Assembly (NCBI GenBank): GCA_049287305.1
Contig: JBAQFO010000012.1
Span: 89,768-153,767, forward strand
Source of the DNA: Minisyncoccia bacterium
GTDB taxonomy: Bacteria; Patescibacteriota; Minisyncoccia; Phycocordibacterales; UBA9973
Direction: 5' to 3'
Length of the DNA stretch: 64,000 nt
This document shows, piece after piece, positions 1,700 to 6,790 of this stretch. Every line of letters starts with the position of its first letter. The stretch's first letter is position 1. The notes below the pieces were generated by a model. The model worked only from the letters and a program-made list of their open reading frames with translations. It ran no database searches and was not told where the DNA came from. A program made the translations under genes and the position numbers.

Positions 1700-1728
1700 C
1701 TTTATTTCTGATTGGCATGTGGTATACT
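1700..1728 (+). promoter_or_regulatory. extended -10 promoter TGgTATACT for the ileS leader
   Basis: TGGTATACT at 1720-1728; the -35 is weak. Confidence 0.35.
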
Positions 1729-1734
1729 ACTTTT

Positions 1735-1954
1735 ACAGGCGTTCGAGGGGAGATCACCCCTTCGCCCCGCGAAGCGGGGCAGGCTTCGGGAAGAATTAAG
1801 TAGAACCCGACGGGCAAGCCCGTTATAGCCGTAATGAGAAACCCCGCTCGAAGCGGGTAAAAACAAAGGTGGTACCACGAGCAAAGAAACTCGTCCTTGT
1901 TCAGCAATTCAGTCAGTCTTTTGAATTGTTGTCCGAGGACGAGTTTTTTATTTT
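1735..1954 (+). promoter_or_regulatory. T-box riboswitch-like leader with intrinsic terminator, upstream of ileS
   Basis: AAAGGTGGTACCACGAG at 1865-1881 matches the T-box consensus AGGGTGGNACCGCG at 12 of 14 positions, including the UGGU bulge that pairs with tRNA ACCA. A terminator immediately downstream has arms AAACTCGTCC (1887-1896) and GGACGAGTTT (1937-1946), an inner helix CAATTC/GAATTG and a TTTTTTATTTT tract. GATCA in an upstream hairpin would give an AUC specifier followed by A. Confidence 0.5.
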
Positions 1955-2035: not shown

Positions 2036-2296
2036 ATGGACAAAAAAGAAAAAACCATAAAGTTTCTTGGAACGCTTGGCACAACCATAGCTATACTTAT
2101 GTTCGTTTCGCTTCTTGAAATCGCCCGAGCAAACATAAGAGGCGAGAGTCATATATTCATACAGCCGATTATGGTTACAATAAATTGTTTTACTTGGTCA
2201 TTGTATGCTTATCTTAAAAAAGAAAAGTTCGTATTTTGGGCAAATTTCCCAGGAGTCCTACTTGGAATTATTACAATAATAACAGCTTTTATATAA
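2036..2296 (+). CDS. small three-helix membrane protein with SemiSWEET-like topology
   Basis: 86 aa with three hydrophobic segments and Trp and Asn at SemiSWEET-like positions (FTWSLYAY, FWANFPG), but no PQ motif. The stop lies 2 nt before the ileS ATG. Confidence 0.35.
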   Translation: MDKKEKTIKFLGTLGTTIAILMFVSLLEIARANIRGESHIFIQPIMVTINCFTWSLYAYLKKEKFVFWANFPGVLLGIITIITAFI

Positions 2297-2298
2297 AT

Positions 2299-5200
2299 AT
2301 GAGTGAAGAAACAAAAAAAATCATAGAAAAATCTGACGCAGCCTTCCGCGAAGAGAAGGTTTTGGAATTTTGGAAAGATAATAAAATTTTCAACAAGACG
2401 CTGGAAGCAAGTGCCGGCAAGAAAGAATTTATTTTTTACGACGGTCCGCCTACTGCTAACGGCATGCCGGGGATTCACCACCTGATTCCGCAATCTTTTA
2501 AGGATGCTATTCCGCGATATAAAACAATGCGCGAGTTCCATGTCCGCAGAAAGGGGGGCTGGGATACTCACGGCCTTCCCGTTGAACTCTTGGTGGAAAA
2601 AGAACTGGGATTGAAATCAAAAAAAGAAATTGAGAGTTACGGTATTGCCGCCTTCAACCAAAAATGCAAAGAAAGTGTCTGGAAGCACGTGGATGTCTGG
2701 TATAAATACCGCGACCGAGTCGGATACTGGGTGGACAAGGATAATCCATACGTTACTTACCACAACGAATTCATTGAGTCGCTGTGGAGTGTGGTGAAAA
2801 AAATAAACGAACGCGGACTACTTTATAAAGATTATAAAGTAGTGCCATGGTGTCCGAGGTGCGGGACGGCGCTGTCTTCACATGAGCTTGCCCAAGGATA
2901 TGAGGACGTAAAAGATTTATCGGTGACGGCAAAATTCAAAGTTGTCGGACAAAACAATACTTATATCCTGGCATGGACGACGACTCCATGGACGCTTCCA
3001 GGGAATGTGGCACTCGCTGTTGGAGAAAATATTGATTATGTAAAGGTGAAAGTAGGAGCCGAGCTTTATATTTTAGCCAAAGCCCGACTTTCTATAATAA
3101 CCGAATCTTACGAGATAGTGGAAGAGATAAAAGGCGGAGGGCTGATTGGCTTGGAATATGAACCGCTGTTCCCATATTTCAAAAATACGATTTCCGAAAA
3201 TGAAAAACCAAAACTGGAAAAAGCCTTCCGGGTGCATAAAGCAAACTTTGTAACCACGGAAGACGGCACGGGGGTAGTGCATACCGCCGTAATGTATGGA
3301 CAGGACGACTTTGTGCTCGGGAACGAAGTCGGCTTGCCGAAACATCATATGGTAGGGCTGGATGGAAAATTCCTTCCCGGGACTGGCATATTTGAAAGGC
3401 GCTTTGTAAAAGACGAGGAAGTTGCCGTAGATATAATCAAAGATTTGGCTGGACGAGGGCTTCTTTTTAAAAAAGAAAAATACGAACACTCGTATCCGCA
3501 TTGCTGGCGATGCAAAACTCCGCTCATATACTACGCGAGAGATTCTTGGTATATCAAAATGTCTGACCCGAAAATAAAAGCCGAACTCATCAGCCAAAAC
3601 AAAGAAATAAATTGGGAGCCGGCGCATACCCGCGACGGACGTTTCGGCGAATGGCTTCGGGAGATAAAAGATTGGGCAATATCACGTGAGCGATATTGGG
3701 GAACACCGCTTCCGGTGTGGTCTTGCGAAACTTGCAAGAAAACCGAAGTGCTCGGGAGCATAGAAGATATAAAATCTAAAGCAAAAAAATCCGGAAATAA
3801 ATATTTGGTAATGCGGCACGGCGGAACTAATGCCAACAAGAAAGGACTTGTAAGCTATAAAAATGAGGCAAGCGACCACCTGACGGAAGAAGGGAAAAGG
3901 CAAGTCACGGCAAGCGCGGAGAAACTAAGTAGCCAAAAAATAGATTTAATTGTGGCGTCTCCCTTTGTTCGCACTAAAGAAACAGCATTAATAGTTAAAG
4001 ACAAATTTGGCCTCGGCGAAGACCAGGTTGTTTTTGACTCGCGCTTGGCGGAATTTGACCCTGGGGATTTTGACGGCAAAGAATGGAAAGATTATCACAG
4101 ATATATTGCTAGCTCAGGGTCTGGATGGTTCAATCAAACAATCCCGGGCGGAGAATCCCTCAAGGATGTGGGGGAGAGGACGGCGTCCCTCTTATATGAG
4201 ATTGAAAATAAGTTCAGTGGAAAAAATATTCTCATTGTTACCCATGGCGGACCGGCATGGCTTTTGTTCGTTAATTCTGGGTTGTTTATACCAGGAGGCG
4301 AGGCTTATAGGATTCCAAACGGAGAATCTTTCGTAAAAGAATTTCAACAGCTAAGGAATGCCGAGGTTAGAGAGTTACCGTTCGCGCCGTTGCCCCATAA
4401 TGAAAAATACGAATTGGATTTGCACAAACCTTATATTGATGAAGTAAAAATGGTTTGTTCCTGCGGAGGAGAACTTATCCGCACCAAAGAAGTCATGGAC
4501 GTGTGGTTTGACTCTGGTGCAATGCCTTTTGCTCAGGACCACTATCCGTTTGAAAATAAAAAATGGGTGGAAGGGCCCGGGTTCCCTGCGGATTTTATCG
4601 CGGAGGCCATAGACCAGACGCGCGGATGGTTCTATACGCTACATGCCGTCGGAATTTTGATGGGGCGAGGCAAGGCATATAAAAACGTGATTTGCTTAGG
4701 TCATTTACTAGACGCCAAAGGAAAGAAAATGTCCAAGTCTCTCGGCAACGTAGTGAATCCGTGGGAAGTAATGGATAAATATGGAGTGGACACATTACGC
4801 CTGTGGATGTATTCCATAAACCAGCCAGGGGAGTCAAAGAATTTTGACGAGAAAACGGTGGCGCTTCTCTCTCAGCAAGTTTTCGGACTGCTTTACAATG
4901 TGCTGGCCTTTTACGAACTTTACCGAGACAAAAGCTACGAAGATAACTCCAGACCAAGCTCTAAAAATATTTTGGACAAATGGATTCTCACCCGTCTTTT
5001 TGAATTAAGGAATGATGTAACAGCCAACATGGATAGTTATAAATTGTTGGAACCTGTGCGAGGAATGAGAGATTTCATCGGAGACCTTTCTACTTGGTAT
5101 TTAAGGCGGTCCCGAGAAAGAATAAAGGAAGGCGACTCGGAAGCGAAGGCCACTTTATATTTTGTGTTGAAGAGTCTAGCCAAGCTGATGGCTCCGTTCG

Positions 5201-5808
5201 CCCCTTTCGCTGCGGAAGACATCTGGTTAAAACTTAGAACAGACAAAGATAAAGAAAGTGTGCATTTGGAAAATTGGCCGACCGAATCCAATATTTTAGG
5301 CATTCTAATGCGACTACCCGGACAAATGCGCACCCTGGTCTACATGGATGAAGTAAGGAAAATAGTAACCCTGGGACTTGAGGCTAGGCAGAAAACCGGG
5401 ATAAAAGTCCGCCAGCCACTTGCCTCCATCAAGGTAAAGTTCGGGAAGCTTGGAGCGGAATACTTGGAATTAATAAAAGAAGAACTGAACGTGAAAGAAA
5501 TAATCTTTGATGATTCAATTTCAGAGGAAGTATTGCTGGATATAAGAATAGACGAAGAACTGAAAGCGGAAGGAAGCTATCGCGAACTTGTGCGGGCTCT
5601 TCAGGATATGAGGAAAAAATCAGGACTTACGCCGAGCGATGTCATAGCGCTTACCATTGCAACAAACGAAGACGGGAAAGCGTTGATTGAGAAATTCCAG
5701 GCGGACATGAAGAAAACAGTTCTTGTCTCAAATATAGAATTTGCTGAAAATGACGGGGAGAAAATAGTAGTTGATGAGTTGGTTTTCAGGGTTAAGATTG
5801 AGAAATAA
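2299..5808 (+). CDS. ileS: isoleucyl-tRNA synthetase (type-2, Thermus/eukaryote-like) carrying an inserted histidine-phosphatase domain
   Basis: The HIGH-class motif PTANGMPGIHH and the KMSKS motif are both present. The CP1 editing region (TTTPWTLPGN), WGTPLP and DVWFDSG are also there. The start is ATG 2299 (MSEETKK); the track ORF from 2236 is an upstream extension. Confidence 0.93.
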   Translation: MSEETKKIIEKSDAAFREEKVLEFWKDNKIFNKTLEASAGKKEFIFYDGPPTANGMPGIHHLIPQSFKDAIPRYKTMREFHVRRKGGWDTHGLPVELLVEKELGLKSKKEIESYGIAAFNQKCKESVWKHVDVWYKYRDRVGYWVDKDNPYVTYHNEFIESLWSVVKKINERGLLYKDYKVVPWCPRCGTALSSHELAQGYEDVKDLSVTAKFKVVGQNNTYILAWTTTPWTLPGNVALAVGENIDYVKVKVGAELYILAKARLSIITESYEIVEEIKGGGLIGLEYEPLFPYFKNTISENEKPKLEKAFRVHKANFVTTEDGTGVVHTAVMYGQDDFVLGNEVGLPKHHMVGLDGKFLPGTGIFERRFVKDEEVAVDIIKDLAGRGLLFKKEKYEHSYPHCWRCKTPLIYYARDSWYIKMSDPKIKAELISQNKEINWEPAHTRDGRFGEWLREIKDWAISRERYWGTPLPVWSCETCKKTEVLGSIEDIKSKAKKSGNKYLVMRHGGTNANKKGLVSYKNEASDHLTEEGKRQVTASAEKLSSQKIDLIVASPFVRTKETALIVKDKFGLGEDQVVFDSRLAEFDPGDFDGKEWKDYHRYIASSGSGWFNQTIPGGESLKDVGERTASLLYEIENKFSGKNILIVTHGGPAWLLFVNSGLFIPGGEAYRIPNGESFVKEFQQLRNAEVRELPFAPLPHNEKYELDLHKPYIDEVKMVCSCGGELIRTKEVMDVWFDSGAMPFAQDHYPFENKKWVEGPGFPADFIAEAIDQTRGWFYTLHAVGILMGRGKAYKNVICLGHLLDAKGKKMSKSLGNVVNPWEVMDKYGVDTLRLWMYSINQPGESKNFDEKTVALLSQQVFGLLYNVLAFYELYRDKSYEDNSRPSSKNILDKWILTRLFELRNDVTANMDSYKLLEPVRGMRDFIGDLSTWYLRRSRERIKEGDSEAKATLYFVLKSLAKLMAPFAPFAAEDIWLKLRTDKDKESVHLENWPTESNILGILMRLPGQMRTLVYMDEVRKIVTLGLEARQKTGIKVRQPLASIKVKFGKLGAEYLELIKEELNVKEIIFDDSISEEVLLDIRIDEELKAEGSYRELVRALQDMRKKSGLTPSDVIALTIATNEDGKALIEKFQADMKKTVLVSNIEFAENDGEKIVVDELVFRVKIEK
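3796..4410 (+). other. in-frame histidine phosphatase (PGAM/SixA-like) domain inserted in IleRS between the WGTPLPVW...KAKKSG and LDLHKPYIDEV segments
   Basis: The catalytic RHG is at 3814-3822 (LVMRHGGTNAN). Further PGAM-type segments are LTEEGKRQ, IVASPFVRTKETA, RLAEFDPGDFDG, PGGESLKDVGER and a second His motif ILIVTHGG (His near 4243). A Thermus-type IleRS has only about 40 aa between these flanking motifs. Confidence 0.7.
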
Positions 5809-5847: not shown

Positions 5848-5865
5848 AAGACTGGAGGCCTAAGC

Positions 5866-6063
5866 ATGGTCAATTGCGAGAGCTGTCAGATGCGGTCGCT
5901 CAAGGAATGTGAACGGTGTGCAACCAATTTCCTCATGGAAAACAAGTGCACACCGGAAGGGGCTCCTGTTCAGGTGGAGCCCTTCGACGCACGCAACCGC
6001 CTTCGGTTCGACCCGAACATGTTCGTGTCGAACCGGAAGCGTCGCCAGCTCAATCCGTCCTAA
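5866..6063 (+). CDS. small GC-rich Cys-motif protein (CESC-x9-CERC), hypothetical
   Basis: The SD GGAGG sits 7 nt before the ATG and a terminator lies downstream. Codons are strongly GC-rich compared with ileS. The region also holds a 12-bp inverted repeat, CTTCGGTTCGAC...GTCGAACCGGAAG. Confidence 0.35.
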   Translation: MVNCESCQMRSLKECERCATNFLMENKCTPEGAPVQVEPFDARNRLRFDPNMFVSNRKRRQLNPS

Positions 6064-6086
6064 GTCCAGCATCCTCTGCTGGCAGA

Positions 6087-6132
6087 ATCCGTCGGGAGCG
6101 CACCTTCGTTGCGCCCGACGGATTTTAATTTT
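6087..6132 (+). terminator. intrinsic terminator: ATCCGTCGGG ... CCCGACGGAT with inner GCGCA/TGCGC, then TTTAATTTT
   Basis: A perfect 10-bp outer stem plus a 5-bp inner stem, followed by a T tract. Confidence 0.7.
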
Positions 6133-6148
6133 ATGGTAAAATATAGTT

Positions 6149-6790
6149 ATGAAGATCAAGAAACTTGGACACTCCTGCCTAGTAATTAATATTAACGGGG
6201 CTAAGATAATGTTGGACCCCGGCAAGTATTCTCTGTCTCAGGTTGAAGAAAGGGATATTGACATAATTCTAATCACGCACGAGCATAGTGATCATTGCCA
6301 CTTAGAATCTATTAAAAAGATATTGGAGAATAACCCACAAGCAGAAATAATTACCAACTTTTCGGTAGGGAAAATTCTGGAGAAAGAAAGTATTAACTAT
6401 GCAATGATTGAAGATGGGCAGAAGGTTGTAAGTCATGGTGTTACTATTATTGGTGTGGGGAAATTACACATAGAAGCACATCGTAGAATTCCTGTGGTTC
6501 CAAATACTGGTTTTATAATAAATGACAAGTTTTTTTACCCCGGGGATGCGTTGCACATACCAAAACATAAGGTAGAAGTTGTTGCCTTTCCTGTTGGCGG
6601 AGGATTTCTTAAAATCAGCGAAGTTGTTGAGTGGCTCGAAACACTTAAACCCAAAGTGGCTATTCCTGTGCATGATGGCCTACTAAACGAAGACGGTAAA
6701 AAAACTTTCTATAAAAATTACCAAAATATCCTTACAGGCACCGGAATTGAATTTAAGGCATTAGAAGTAAATAAAGAAGAAGAATTTTGA
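6149..6790 (+). CDS. MBL-fold metallo-hydrolase
   Basis: ITHEHSDH (the HxHxDH motif) and further His and Asp ligands downstream. Confidence 0.8.
   Translation: MKIKKLGHSCLVININGAKIMLDPGKYSLSQVEERDIDIILITHEHSDHCHLESIKKILENNPQAEIITNFSVGKILEKESINYAMIEDGQKVVSHGVTIIGVGKLHIEAHRRIPVVPNTGFIINDKFFYPGDALHIPKHKVEVVAFPVGGGFLKISEVVEWLETLKPKVAIPVHDGLLNEDGKKTFYKNYQNILTGTGIEFKALEVNKEEEF

Follow-up and report, generated by a model that had tools for sequence, protein, structure and literature searches.

The DNA analysed here is a 64,000-nucleotide stretch of a Minisyncoccia genome (contig JBAQFO010000012.1; referred to below as the window), and the element in question is a structured leader on its forward strand, at 1734-1954, that precedes a gene for a SemiSWEET membrane protein and the isoleucyl-tRNA synthetase (IleRS) gene ileS. 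This leader is very probably a genuine T-box. Our chief result, to which we assign a probability of about 0.85, is that it is a tRNA-Ile-responsive T-box riboswitch controlling transcription read-through into the SemiSWEET-ileS operon. The initial annotation had placed a T-box-like leader upstream of ileS; the T-box and the downstream ileS both stand, but the gene that immediately follows is SemiSWEET, and ileS comes second. The locus is laid out as follows.

1720-1728 (+): extended -10 promoter, TGgTATACT, read from the sequence; the transcript probably starts at ~1735-1737
1737-1740 (+): 5' strand of P1, the basal helix of Stem I (AGGC), pairing with GCUU at 1783-1786
1744-1764 (+): short Stem I hairpin, CGAGGGG-AGAUCA-CCCCUUCG, from folding and covariation
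1747-1760 (+): specifier hairpin, GGGG-AGAUCA-CCCC, with AUC at 1753-1755 and A1756 in a 6-nt apical loop
1765-1780 (+): junction hairpin at the Stem I/P1 junction, CCCCGC-GAA-GCGGGG(C), predicted by folds
1783-1786 (+): 3' strand of P1 (GCUU), from covariation (helix 1 of alignment A4, described below)
1787-1809 (+): Stem II, CGGG/CCCG closing an S-turn-type motif (AAGAA at 1791-1795, AGUA at 1799-1802)
1811-1825 (+): Stem IIA hairpin, CGGG-CAAG-CCCG, with an F-box-like CCCGUUA, from the Rfam alignment
1843-1857 (+): Stem III hairpin, CCCGCU-CGA-AGCGGG, from folds and the Rfam alignment
1866-1898 (+): antiterminator (discriminator), the minimum-free-energy fold without the terminator 3' arm
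1887-1954 (+): intrinsic terminator, a hairpin at 1887-1946 plus a U-tract
2036-2296 (+): SemiSWEET (MtN3_slv) membrane protein, 86 aa, first gene under the leader (Pfam PF03083, E 3.3e-10)
2299-5808 (+): ileS, encoding a type 2 IleRS of 1169 aa, second gene under the leader (Pfam and PDB matches)

The T-box sequence AAAGGTGGTACCACGAG lies at 1865-1881. Within it, AAGGUGGUACCACG (1866-1879) agrees with the published 14-mer consensus AGGGUGGNACCGCG (PMC11297988) at 12 of 14 positions, the same degree of agreement that the initial annotation had reported. The segment UGGUACC (1870-1876) forms a 7-nt bulge in the fold, and its first four bases (UGGN) are able to pair with the NCCA end of a tRNA. 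On either side of this bulge are helix A1 (AAGG 1866-1869 with CCUU 1895-1898) and helix A2 (ACGAG 1877-1881 with CUCGU 1890-1894). The competing antiterminator expected by the initial annotation does form in the predicted folds, and whether it does so depends on the length of the transcript: an RNA ending at 1902 has the classical antiterminator, 7-nt bulge included, as its structure of minimum free energy, and once the terminator 3' arm is present, the two-part terminator forms in its place. That terminator hairpin, also anticipated at 1887-1954 as two helices followed by a T-run, has a lower stem of 13 bp joined through a 2x2 internal loop to an upper stem of 11 bp with an 8-nt loop. The T-run TTTTTTATTTT at 1944-1954 begins inside the 3' arm, where T 1944-1946 pair with AAA 1887-1889, and its RNA form UUUUUUAUUUU is continuous with this arm. 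The strand CUCGUCCUU (1890-1898) is both the antiterminator 3' strand and part of the terminator 5' arm; as judged from folds and covariation, the two structures are mutually exclusive alternatives with one common strand. In the window the antiterminator has an energy of -5.9 kcal/mol and the terminator one of -33.8 kcal/mol, and therefore the default state is predicted to be OFF, as in known T-boxes.

The hairpin containing GATCA, proposed earlier as the site of an isoleucine specifier, indeed presents AUC followed by a purine, which matches the amino acid of ileS. Stem I as a whole, a hairpin of 4-7 bp closed by a 6-nt loop, carries no distal platform. In the window its junction with P1 is three-way because the hairpin at 1765-1780 has been inserted there. 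The promoter suggested at 1720-1728 is likewise present; a consensus promoter scan misses this site because it has no -35 element.

Searches with Rfam were made in gathering-score mode and then in E-value mode, both on the local region and on both strands of the 64-kb window with 4227 families. The match to RF00230, the T-box family, that the initial annotation had called for was obtained in E-value mode, although under the gathering score: it covers 1733-1901 (+) and model positions 1-219, the full model, with 49.3 bits (E 8.4e-10 in the local search and 8.9e-8 for the window against all families), and it is the sole Rfam match at E<=0.01 across the window. At the gathering score, which for RF00230 is 93 bits, the window gave zero matches, and none of 13 relatives tested reached the threshold either. 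The score is about half of that required because the 88-position interior of the model's Stem I is replaced by 37 nt, which in the Rfam alignment are mostly the junction hairpin. Therefore, standard Rfam annotation is silent at this leader. Elsewhere, AAGUAG of Stem II is aligned to the AGUA consensus with high posterior probability, and Stem IIA is matched to the IIA/F-box consensus cCGUUA at maximal posterior probability. Additionally, folding of the entire leader gives z = -6.5 in comparison with shuffled sequences.

Covariation in related leaders

As relatives we took the 80 loci with the closest IleRS in a collection of species-representative genomes, with the window IleRS as reference. 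All 80 belong to metagenome-assembled genomes (MAGs) of Nomurabacteria, Paceibacterota or Patescibacteria, and their enzymes are 58-69% identical to that of the window; the exact window protein occurs in a Minisyncoccia (Patescibacteria) MAG (GCA_049303715.1, contig JBAQNI010000003.1). The motif GGTGGTACC[AG]CG is found upstream of ileS, on the ileS strand, in 41 of the 80 loci. From an alignment of 29 leaders (A1) we built a covariance model (R1), which was searched against all 80 loci and the window. It gave full-length matches of 84-186 bits in 40 loci, oriented towards ileS and located 2-315 nt upstream of it, and a single match in the window (1734-1949, 138 bits). Among the remaining loci, 38 have no leader, one is cut by the contig end (L058) and one has a run of N at the leader site (L002). 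In the last case the run (~3830-3925) spans the expected decoding and discriminator domains, and the readable terminator half scores 40 bits against R1. A TAnnnT hexamer ends 2-7 nt before the model start in all 42 leaders considered for this feature, that is, those of the window, the 40 relatives and a metagenome contig (L081).

Covariation was assessed in a core alignment (A4) of 39 leaders and 130 columns, gap-free after excision of variable inserts, which we put together manually, starting from a model-fitted alignment of phylogenetically related sequences; the irregular leaders L042 and L057 were left out. It was rebuilt with inserts excised because both MAFFT and covariance-model alignments set the P1 3' strand before the junction insert. 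The covariation that the initial annotation proposed to look for in relatives is present in both alternative structures. In the antiterminator form (decoding helices plus antiterminator), 96.8% of cells are paired and 12 of 21 pairs show double changes, and in the terminator form (decoding helices plus terminator) the values are 97.7% and 19 of 28; none of 500 shuffles was as high in either case, and slid controls were 33-57% and 36-47% paired, respectively. Considered singly, helix A1 is 100% paired, helix A2 has double changes at three of five pairs, and the terminator helix is 98.6% paired with double changes at 10 of 16 pairs. Furthermore, there are positions at which all three strands change together: A79-U91-A120 becomes G-C-G in two leaders (L029, L066), as does A82-U88-A123 in two others (L016, L050), a three-way covariation that ties the shared strand to both the T-box strand and the terminator 3' arm.

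The decoding helices are maintained in the same way. The Stem I hairpin is 98.7% paired with compensatory double changes at all four stem pairs, Stem II has double changes at three of its four, and P1 is 98% paired, with compensatory versions AAGC/GCUU, AUGC/GCAU, ACGC/GCGU and AUAC/GUAU. At the Stem I/P1 junction, an insert is present in 13 of the 41 leaders of our module census (the window and 40 relatives); the 3' strand of P1 comes after this insert and covaries with its 5' counterpart. Most relatives have a kink-turn (K-turn)-like arrangement there, P1-NNN-GA...GA-P1, and the window has CGA...UUC, which can pair by Watson-Crick rules, together with the inserted hairpin. The change of the 3' GA to UUC is shared with L063, L069 and L013, and all four leaders possess a junction hairpin.

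Against this background of compensatory change, several positions do not vary at all. The specifier A20, T21 and C22 is invariant in the core alignment and precedes A or G; AUC with either of these purines after it is likewise found in all 41 leaders aligned to the covariance model, the window included, and in five further SemiSWEET-linked leaders. Also invariant are UGGU, the GAA of Stem II (G41, A42, A43), its UAGA (T49, A50, G51, A52) and T126-T129 of the U-tract. Across the 41 leaders, total length ranges from 150 to 229 nt and the median energies are -6.0 kcal/mol for the antiterminator and -27.1 kcal/mol for the terminator. The modules between decoding and discriminator domains differ among them as follows.

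IIA/B and Stem III both present: 10 of 41 leaders, the window among them
IIA/B alone: 5 of 41 leaders
Stem III alone: 6 of 41 leaders
Neither the IIA/B pseudoknot nor Stem III: 19 of 41 leaders
A plain hairpin instead of IIA/B: 1 of 41 leaders (L022)

Stem IIA is thus present in 15 leaders, the IIA/B element being missing from 26 of the 41, and Stem III in 16. Counted apart from this census, a distal Stem I hairpin occurs in five leaders and an insert atop helix A2 in 10.

Two further features of the related loci were recorded. In loci without a T-box, ileS follows an argS-like gene and lies ~10 nt downstream of a TGnTAAAAT -10 element; in nine of them (L003, L004, L010, L027, L031, L032, L035, L041 and L060), a TGnTAAAAT extended -10 sits ~30 nt before ileS and there is no Shine-Dalgarno sequence. 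A -10 element only ~10 nt from the AUG, with no Shine-Dalgarno sequence, implies that leaderless or near-leaderless mRNAs exist in this lineage. In addition, a conserved element of ~75 nt lies between the T-box terminator and ileS in L019 (3885-3960), L021, L022, L037, L042, L048 and L057, and is partly present in L017 and absent from the window. It reads CUUCRCAAAUUAUAUUCU-AAAAAAGUCCUCGG...(G/A-rich)...CCAGAC-AUUUUUU-AUAAAAUAAUUUG, is able to form a long imperfect hairpin and has no Rfam match.

Proposed switching mechanism and its alternatives

The motifs, helices, covariation, specifier conservation and gene context described above are observations, and binding of tRNA, sensing of its charging state and termination are taken from the established T-box mechanism. 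On this basis, transcription would begin a few bases 3' of the extended -10 element at 1720-1728. The decoding module, in which the short Stem I offers AUC-A in its six-base apical loop and is flanked by the Stem II S-turn and Stem IIA/F-box, would bind the GAU anticodon of tRNA-Ile with no platform for the tRNA elbow. If the tRNA is uncharged, its 3' ACCA would pair with UGGU (1870-1873) and steady the weak antiterminator (~-6 kcal/mol), which would keep CUCGUCCUU (1890-1898) from its far stronger partner GGACGAG (1937-1943) and so allow RNA polymerase to read through. With a charged tRNA, or with none, the terminator (-34 kcal/mol) would form before the U-tract and transcription would stop. 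The upper hairpin of the terminator, 10 bp long and conserved, lengthens the path from the T-box bulge to the terminator 3' arm by ~30 nt, and in the window, where the upper stem is 11 bp, by ~45 nt. This extra length may buy time for a tRNA capture that lacks elbow contact.

Several points weigh against this interpretation. Transcriptional T-boxes generally need a long Stem I with an elbow platform for fast tRNA capture, and class III T-boxes act for the most part on the initiation of translation (PMC7583486, PMC10482949). Class III is defined by a short Stem I without the double T-loop elbow platform, an apical loop of five or six nucleotides that contains the specifier, and a required Stem II (PMC10482949, PMC7583486), and the window has just such a platform-less short Stem I with its specifier in the apical loop (GGGG-AGAUCA-CCCC, in which all four pairs covary). 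Given the published need for the elbow and the translational bias of class III, one would not by default expect an architecture of this kind to act co-transcriptionally. Furthermore, the leader scores well under the Rfam gathering threshold (49.3 versus 93 bits), the core alignment involved excision of inserts by hand and the omission of two irregular leaders, and the IIB pseudoknot pairing shows no covariation of the IIA loop with the linker in 15 leaders, the candidate GC/GC partners being invariant. No tRNA genes, from which the presumed GAU anticodon and A73 discriminator of the ligand could be read, turned up in the window or in a scan that covered 60 of the 80 related loci. Finally, a promoter-like site at 2001-2028 (9 of 12 matches) could in principle drive SemiSWEET and ileS independently of the T-box.

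The strongest of the competing explanations, although an unlikely one, is a translational switch in which the hairpin that we regard as a terminator mainly blocks the ribosome landing site and transcription is unregulated, as in actinobacterial class III ileS leaders. In its favor, the class III type to which the decoding module belongs is "mostly" translational (PMC10482949), and the ileS AUG of 27 of the 40 relatives is located 2-30 nt past the U-tract, where the hairpin is near enough to hinder initiation; these genes have no Shine-Dalgarno sequence in these genomes, and unstructured AU-rich leaders may matter. However, the signature of an intrinsic terminator, a GC-rich stem directly followed by 5-8 U, is found at the 3' end of all 41 leaders, and the window leader has neither a Shine-Dalgarno sequence nor Shine-Dalgarno/anti-Shine-Dalgarno pairing. 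In the window, 82 nt separate the U-tract from the first start codon downstream of it (SemiSWEET, 2036), and in several relatives this spacing is 90-315 nt, distances at which the hairpin would be unable to mask initiation. A purely translational mechanism is thus unlikely, and an added translational effect is conceivable in the tightly spaced relatives.

Much less probable is that the leader is a decaying T-box relic without regulatory activity, SemiSWEET and ileS being expressed from the site at 2001-2028. The leader is missing, whether lost or never present, from about half of the related genomes, which express ileS from a simple TGnTAAAAT promoter ~10 nt before the AUG, a promoter-like match does precede SemiSWEET, and the window Stem I is without the K-turn GA motif that most relatives kept. 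Yet the functional motifs are all intact in the window, compensatory changes preserve the helices in 39 leaders from loci with IleRS proteins as divergent as stated above, and the promoter-like match is at chance level (2 sites found versus 1.7 expected); moreover, with so strong a terminator, a relic without regulation would just shut off the upstream promoter. Least probable of all is that the structure is no T-box and is instead a factor-independent terminator of the upstream region with a chance resemblance to T-box motifs. The Rfam score under the gathering threshold and the unusual, GC-rich and unannotated sequence upstream (~400-1735) are what would favor it. Against chance resemblance stand the RF00230 E-value over the window and 4227 families, the conservation of the entire 150-230-nt leader, beyond the terminator, immediately upstream of ileS or SemiSWEET-ileS, and the invariance of the codon-like AUC and the UGGU bulge. 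This last explanation is already contradicted by conservation and covariation in the relatives. We therefore retain the transcriptional tRNA-Ile riboswitch as the explanation of the leader.

The SemiSWEET-ileS operon and its surroundings

The order T-box, SemiSWEET, ileS occurs in seven distinct genomes: the window, L006 (identical to L088), L081, L084, L085, L086 and L089. SemiSWEET lies at 2263-2514 in L006, at 2190-2447 in L081 and at 2501-2761 or 2501-2764 in L084-L086, L088 and L089. In L081, a groundwater contig, the T-box scores 146.5 bits and ends 11 nt before the SemiSWEET AUG, with ileS next. Six further SemiSWEET homologs were looked up, and in five of these (L084, L085, L086, L088 and L089) the order is argS, T-box, SemiSWEET, ileS; the sixth (L087) is elsewhere in its genome and has no T-box. 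The SemiSWEET proteins of the seven distinct operons are 63-84% identical to that of the window, and all seven leaders have the AUC specifier. In six of the seven, the SemiSWEET AUG is within ~25 nt of the terminator U-tract, the window with its longer spacing being the seventh. By the usual logic of T-box regulons (PMC2494555), the presence of SemiSWEET in an isoleucine T-box operon predicts a role in isoleucine supply. The arrangement suggests that SemiSWEET is a transporter within the isoleucine regulon.

The IleRS of the window is of type 2, since it scores higher against PDB entries 8c8w and 1ile (770-788 bits) than against the type 1 enzyme 1ffy (335 bits). Inserted in its catalytic core (aa 503-657, window 3805-4269) is a His_Phos_1 domain, that is, a PGAM-like histidine phosphatase, which is complete and retains the RHG motif and the second catalytic His. 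Its closest solved relative is the phosphoserine phosphatase 4ij5 (E 4e-10). The related IleRS proteins are about equally long, with tblastn matches that in most of the 80 loci begin close to the N terminus and extend to residue 1144-1169, and Pfam finds His_Phos_1 in the called IleRS genes of five SemiSWEET-linked loci. We know of no described aminoacyl-tRNA synthetase with such a histidine-phosphatase insertion.

Two GC-rich stretches flank the operon. Between the upstream genes and the T-box, 1.3 kb (~400-1735) has 47-55% GC, compared with ~33-45% nearby, and a strong G skew. It contains no convincing open reading frame, and it looks like an insertion because argS abuts ileS in relatives without a T-box. 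We considered whether it is a structured RNA or a phage remnant and rejected both, as there was no Rfam, Pfam or PHROG match and no conservation in relatives. Downstream, the intergenic region at 5850-6150 (54% GC), between ileS and a gene for a metallo-beta-lactamase-fold protein, contains an inverted repeat at ~5998-6041 and has no Rfam match.

Significance and comparison with known T-box classes

T-boxes that precede aminoacyl-tRNA synthetase genes are textbook knowledge, and class III T-boxes of ileS are known. Among the open-access papers searched, we found none that links T-boxes with the candidate phyla radiation (CPR), Patescibacteria, Parcubacteria or Saccharibacteria, and none on SemiSWEET together with a T-box. 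The host phylum appears to be new for T-boxes, as do the lineage-wide combination of a class III/IV decoding module with a terminator, accompanied by natural loss of the pseudoknot and Stem III, and the membership of SemiSWEET in a T-box regulon. The short-Stem-I model of TBDB was searched in actinobacterial reference genomes and in RF00230 hits with truncated Stem I (PMC7778990). Since the literature describes class III as "mostly" translational, transcriptional exceptions may already be recorded.

We tentatively propose, as a generalization that is somewhat more likely to fail than to hold, that Nomurabacteria/Paceibacterota harbor an unannotated lineage of minimized co-transcriptional isoleucine T-boxes of 150-230 nt with no elbow platform, about half of them also without pseudoknot and Stem III, and that in the subclade of the window these govern SemiSWEET. 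If this were true, it would contradict the need for elbow contact in transcriptional T-boxes and the need for the pseudoknot in class III decoding, and the SemiSWEET of this subclade would be predicted to supply isoleucine or a precursor rather than sugar. In the RNA of Nocardia farcinica, deletion of the pseudoknot weakens tRNA binding ~1200-fold (PMC7583486); given this effect and the elbow requirement from the same work, members that bear a terminator and have neither pseudoknot nor platform are of specialist interest. The family would amount to a natural deletion series (pseudoknot, Stem III, distal Stem I helix and K-turn) on one conserved discriminator and terminator, and its combination of class III decoding with a transcriptional read-out would test which contacts co-transcriptional tRNA sensing needs. 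As regards CPR biology, the hosts have very small genomes and no evident isoleucine biosynthesis, yet the charging of tRNA-Ile would be monitored in them. For SemiSWEET function, membership in an isoleucine regulon in seven distinct genomes offers a testable lead, and for annotation, it is of practical importance that a whole lineage is missed at the Rfam gathering score.

The initial annotation had noted that leaders of this sort before aminoacyl-tRNA synthetase genes are well known in Firmicutes and rarer in reduced lineages. It was right as to the T-box, but the architecture is of the short-Stem-I, class III-like type and the host belongs to Patescibacteria (CPR). With class I T-boxes such as that of Bacillus subtilis tyrS (RF00230), the leader has in common the T-box 14-mer (12 of 14), an antiterminator and terminator built on one shared strand, Stem II with AGUA/GAA, the F-box, Stem III, the intrinsic terminator and control of an aminoacyl-tRNA synthetase. 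Unlike class I, its Stem I is ~50 nt shorter and has neither the AG bulge nor the distal loop that make up the double T-loop platform, and its specifier is in a terminal rather than an internal loop. Five relatives (L007, L020, L043, L047 and L048) resemble the class IV ileS T-box of Actinomyces odontolyticus (PMC10482949) in that a hairpin of 18-22 nt lies 5' of the specifier and AUC occupies a side bulge between two helices. These leaders end in a terminator like that of the window, whose specifier, unlike theirs, is in the apical-loop form.

The closest likeness is to class III, of which the ileS leaders of N. farcinica and Mycobacterium tuberculosis are examples (Sherwood et al. 2015 and PDB 6UFM, 6UFG, as described in PMC7583486 and PMC10482949). 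Judged from published descriptions of actinobacterial leaders rather than from their sequences, the shared features are control of ileS, the AUC specifier plus purine, the hexanucleotide apical loop, the platform-less short Stem I, Stem II with its S-turn and purine string, Stem IIA/F-box, Stem III and the UGGN bulge. The inserts atop helix A2 in relatives are as noted for translational T-boxes. The enzyme under control is also of the same kind, for actinobacterial IleRS is likewise a type 2 enzyme. The differences lie in the host, which is a member of the Patescibacteria, in the extra hairpin that creates a three-way junction where a K-turn is expected, and in the absence from 19 of 41 leaders of the IIA/B pseudoknot and Stem III, elements reported to be important for tRNA binding in Actinobacteria. 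Above all, the expression platform of the window is a strong intrinsic terminator with a U-tract, the AUG being far downstream, and not the Shine-Dalgarno sequestrator that most class III members possess, although that feature is not strictly defining. The window leader is thus a class III-type decoding module joined to a transcriptional terminator platform.

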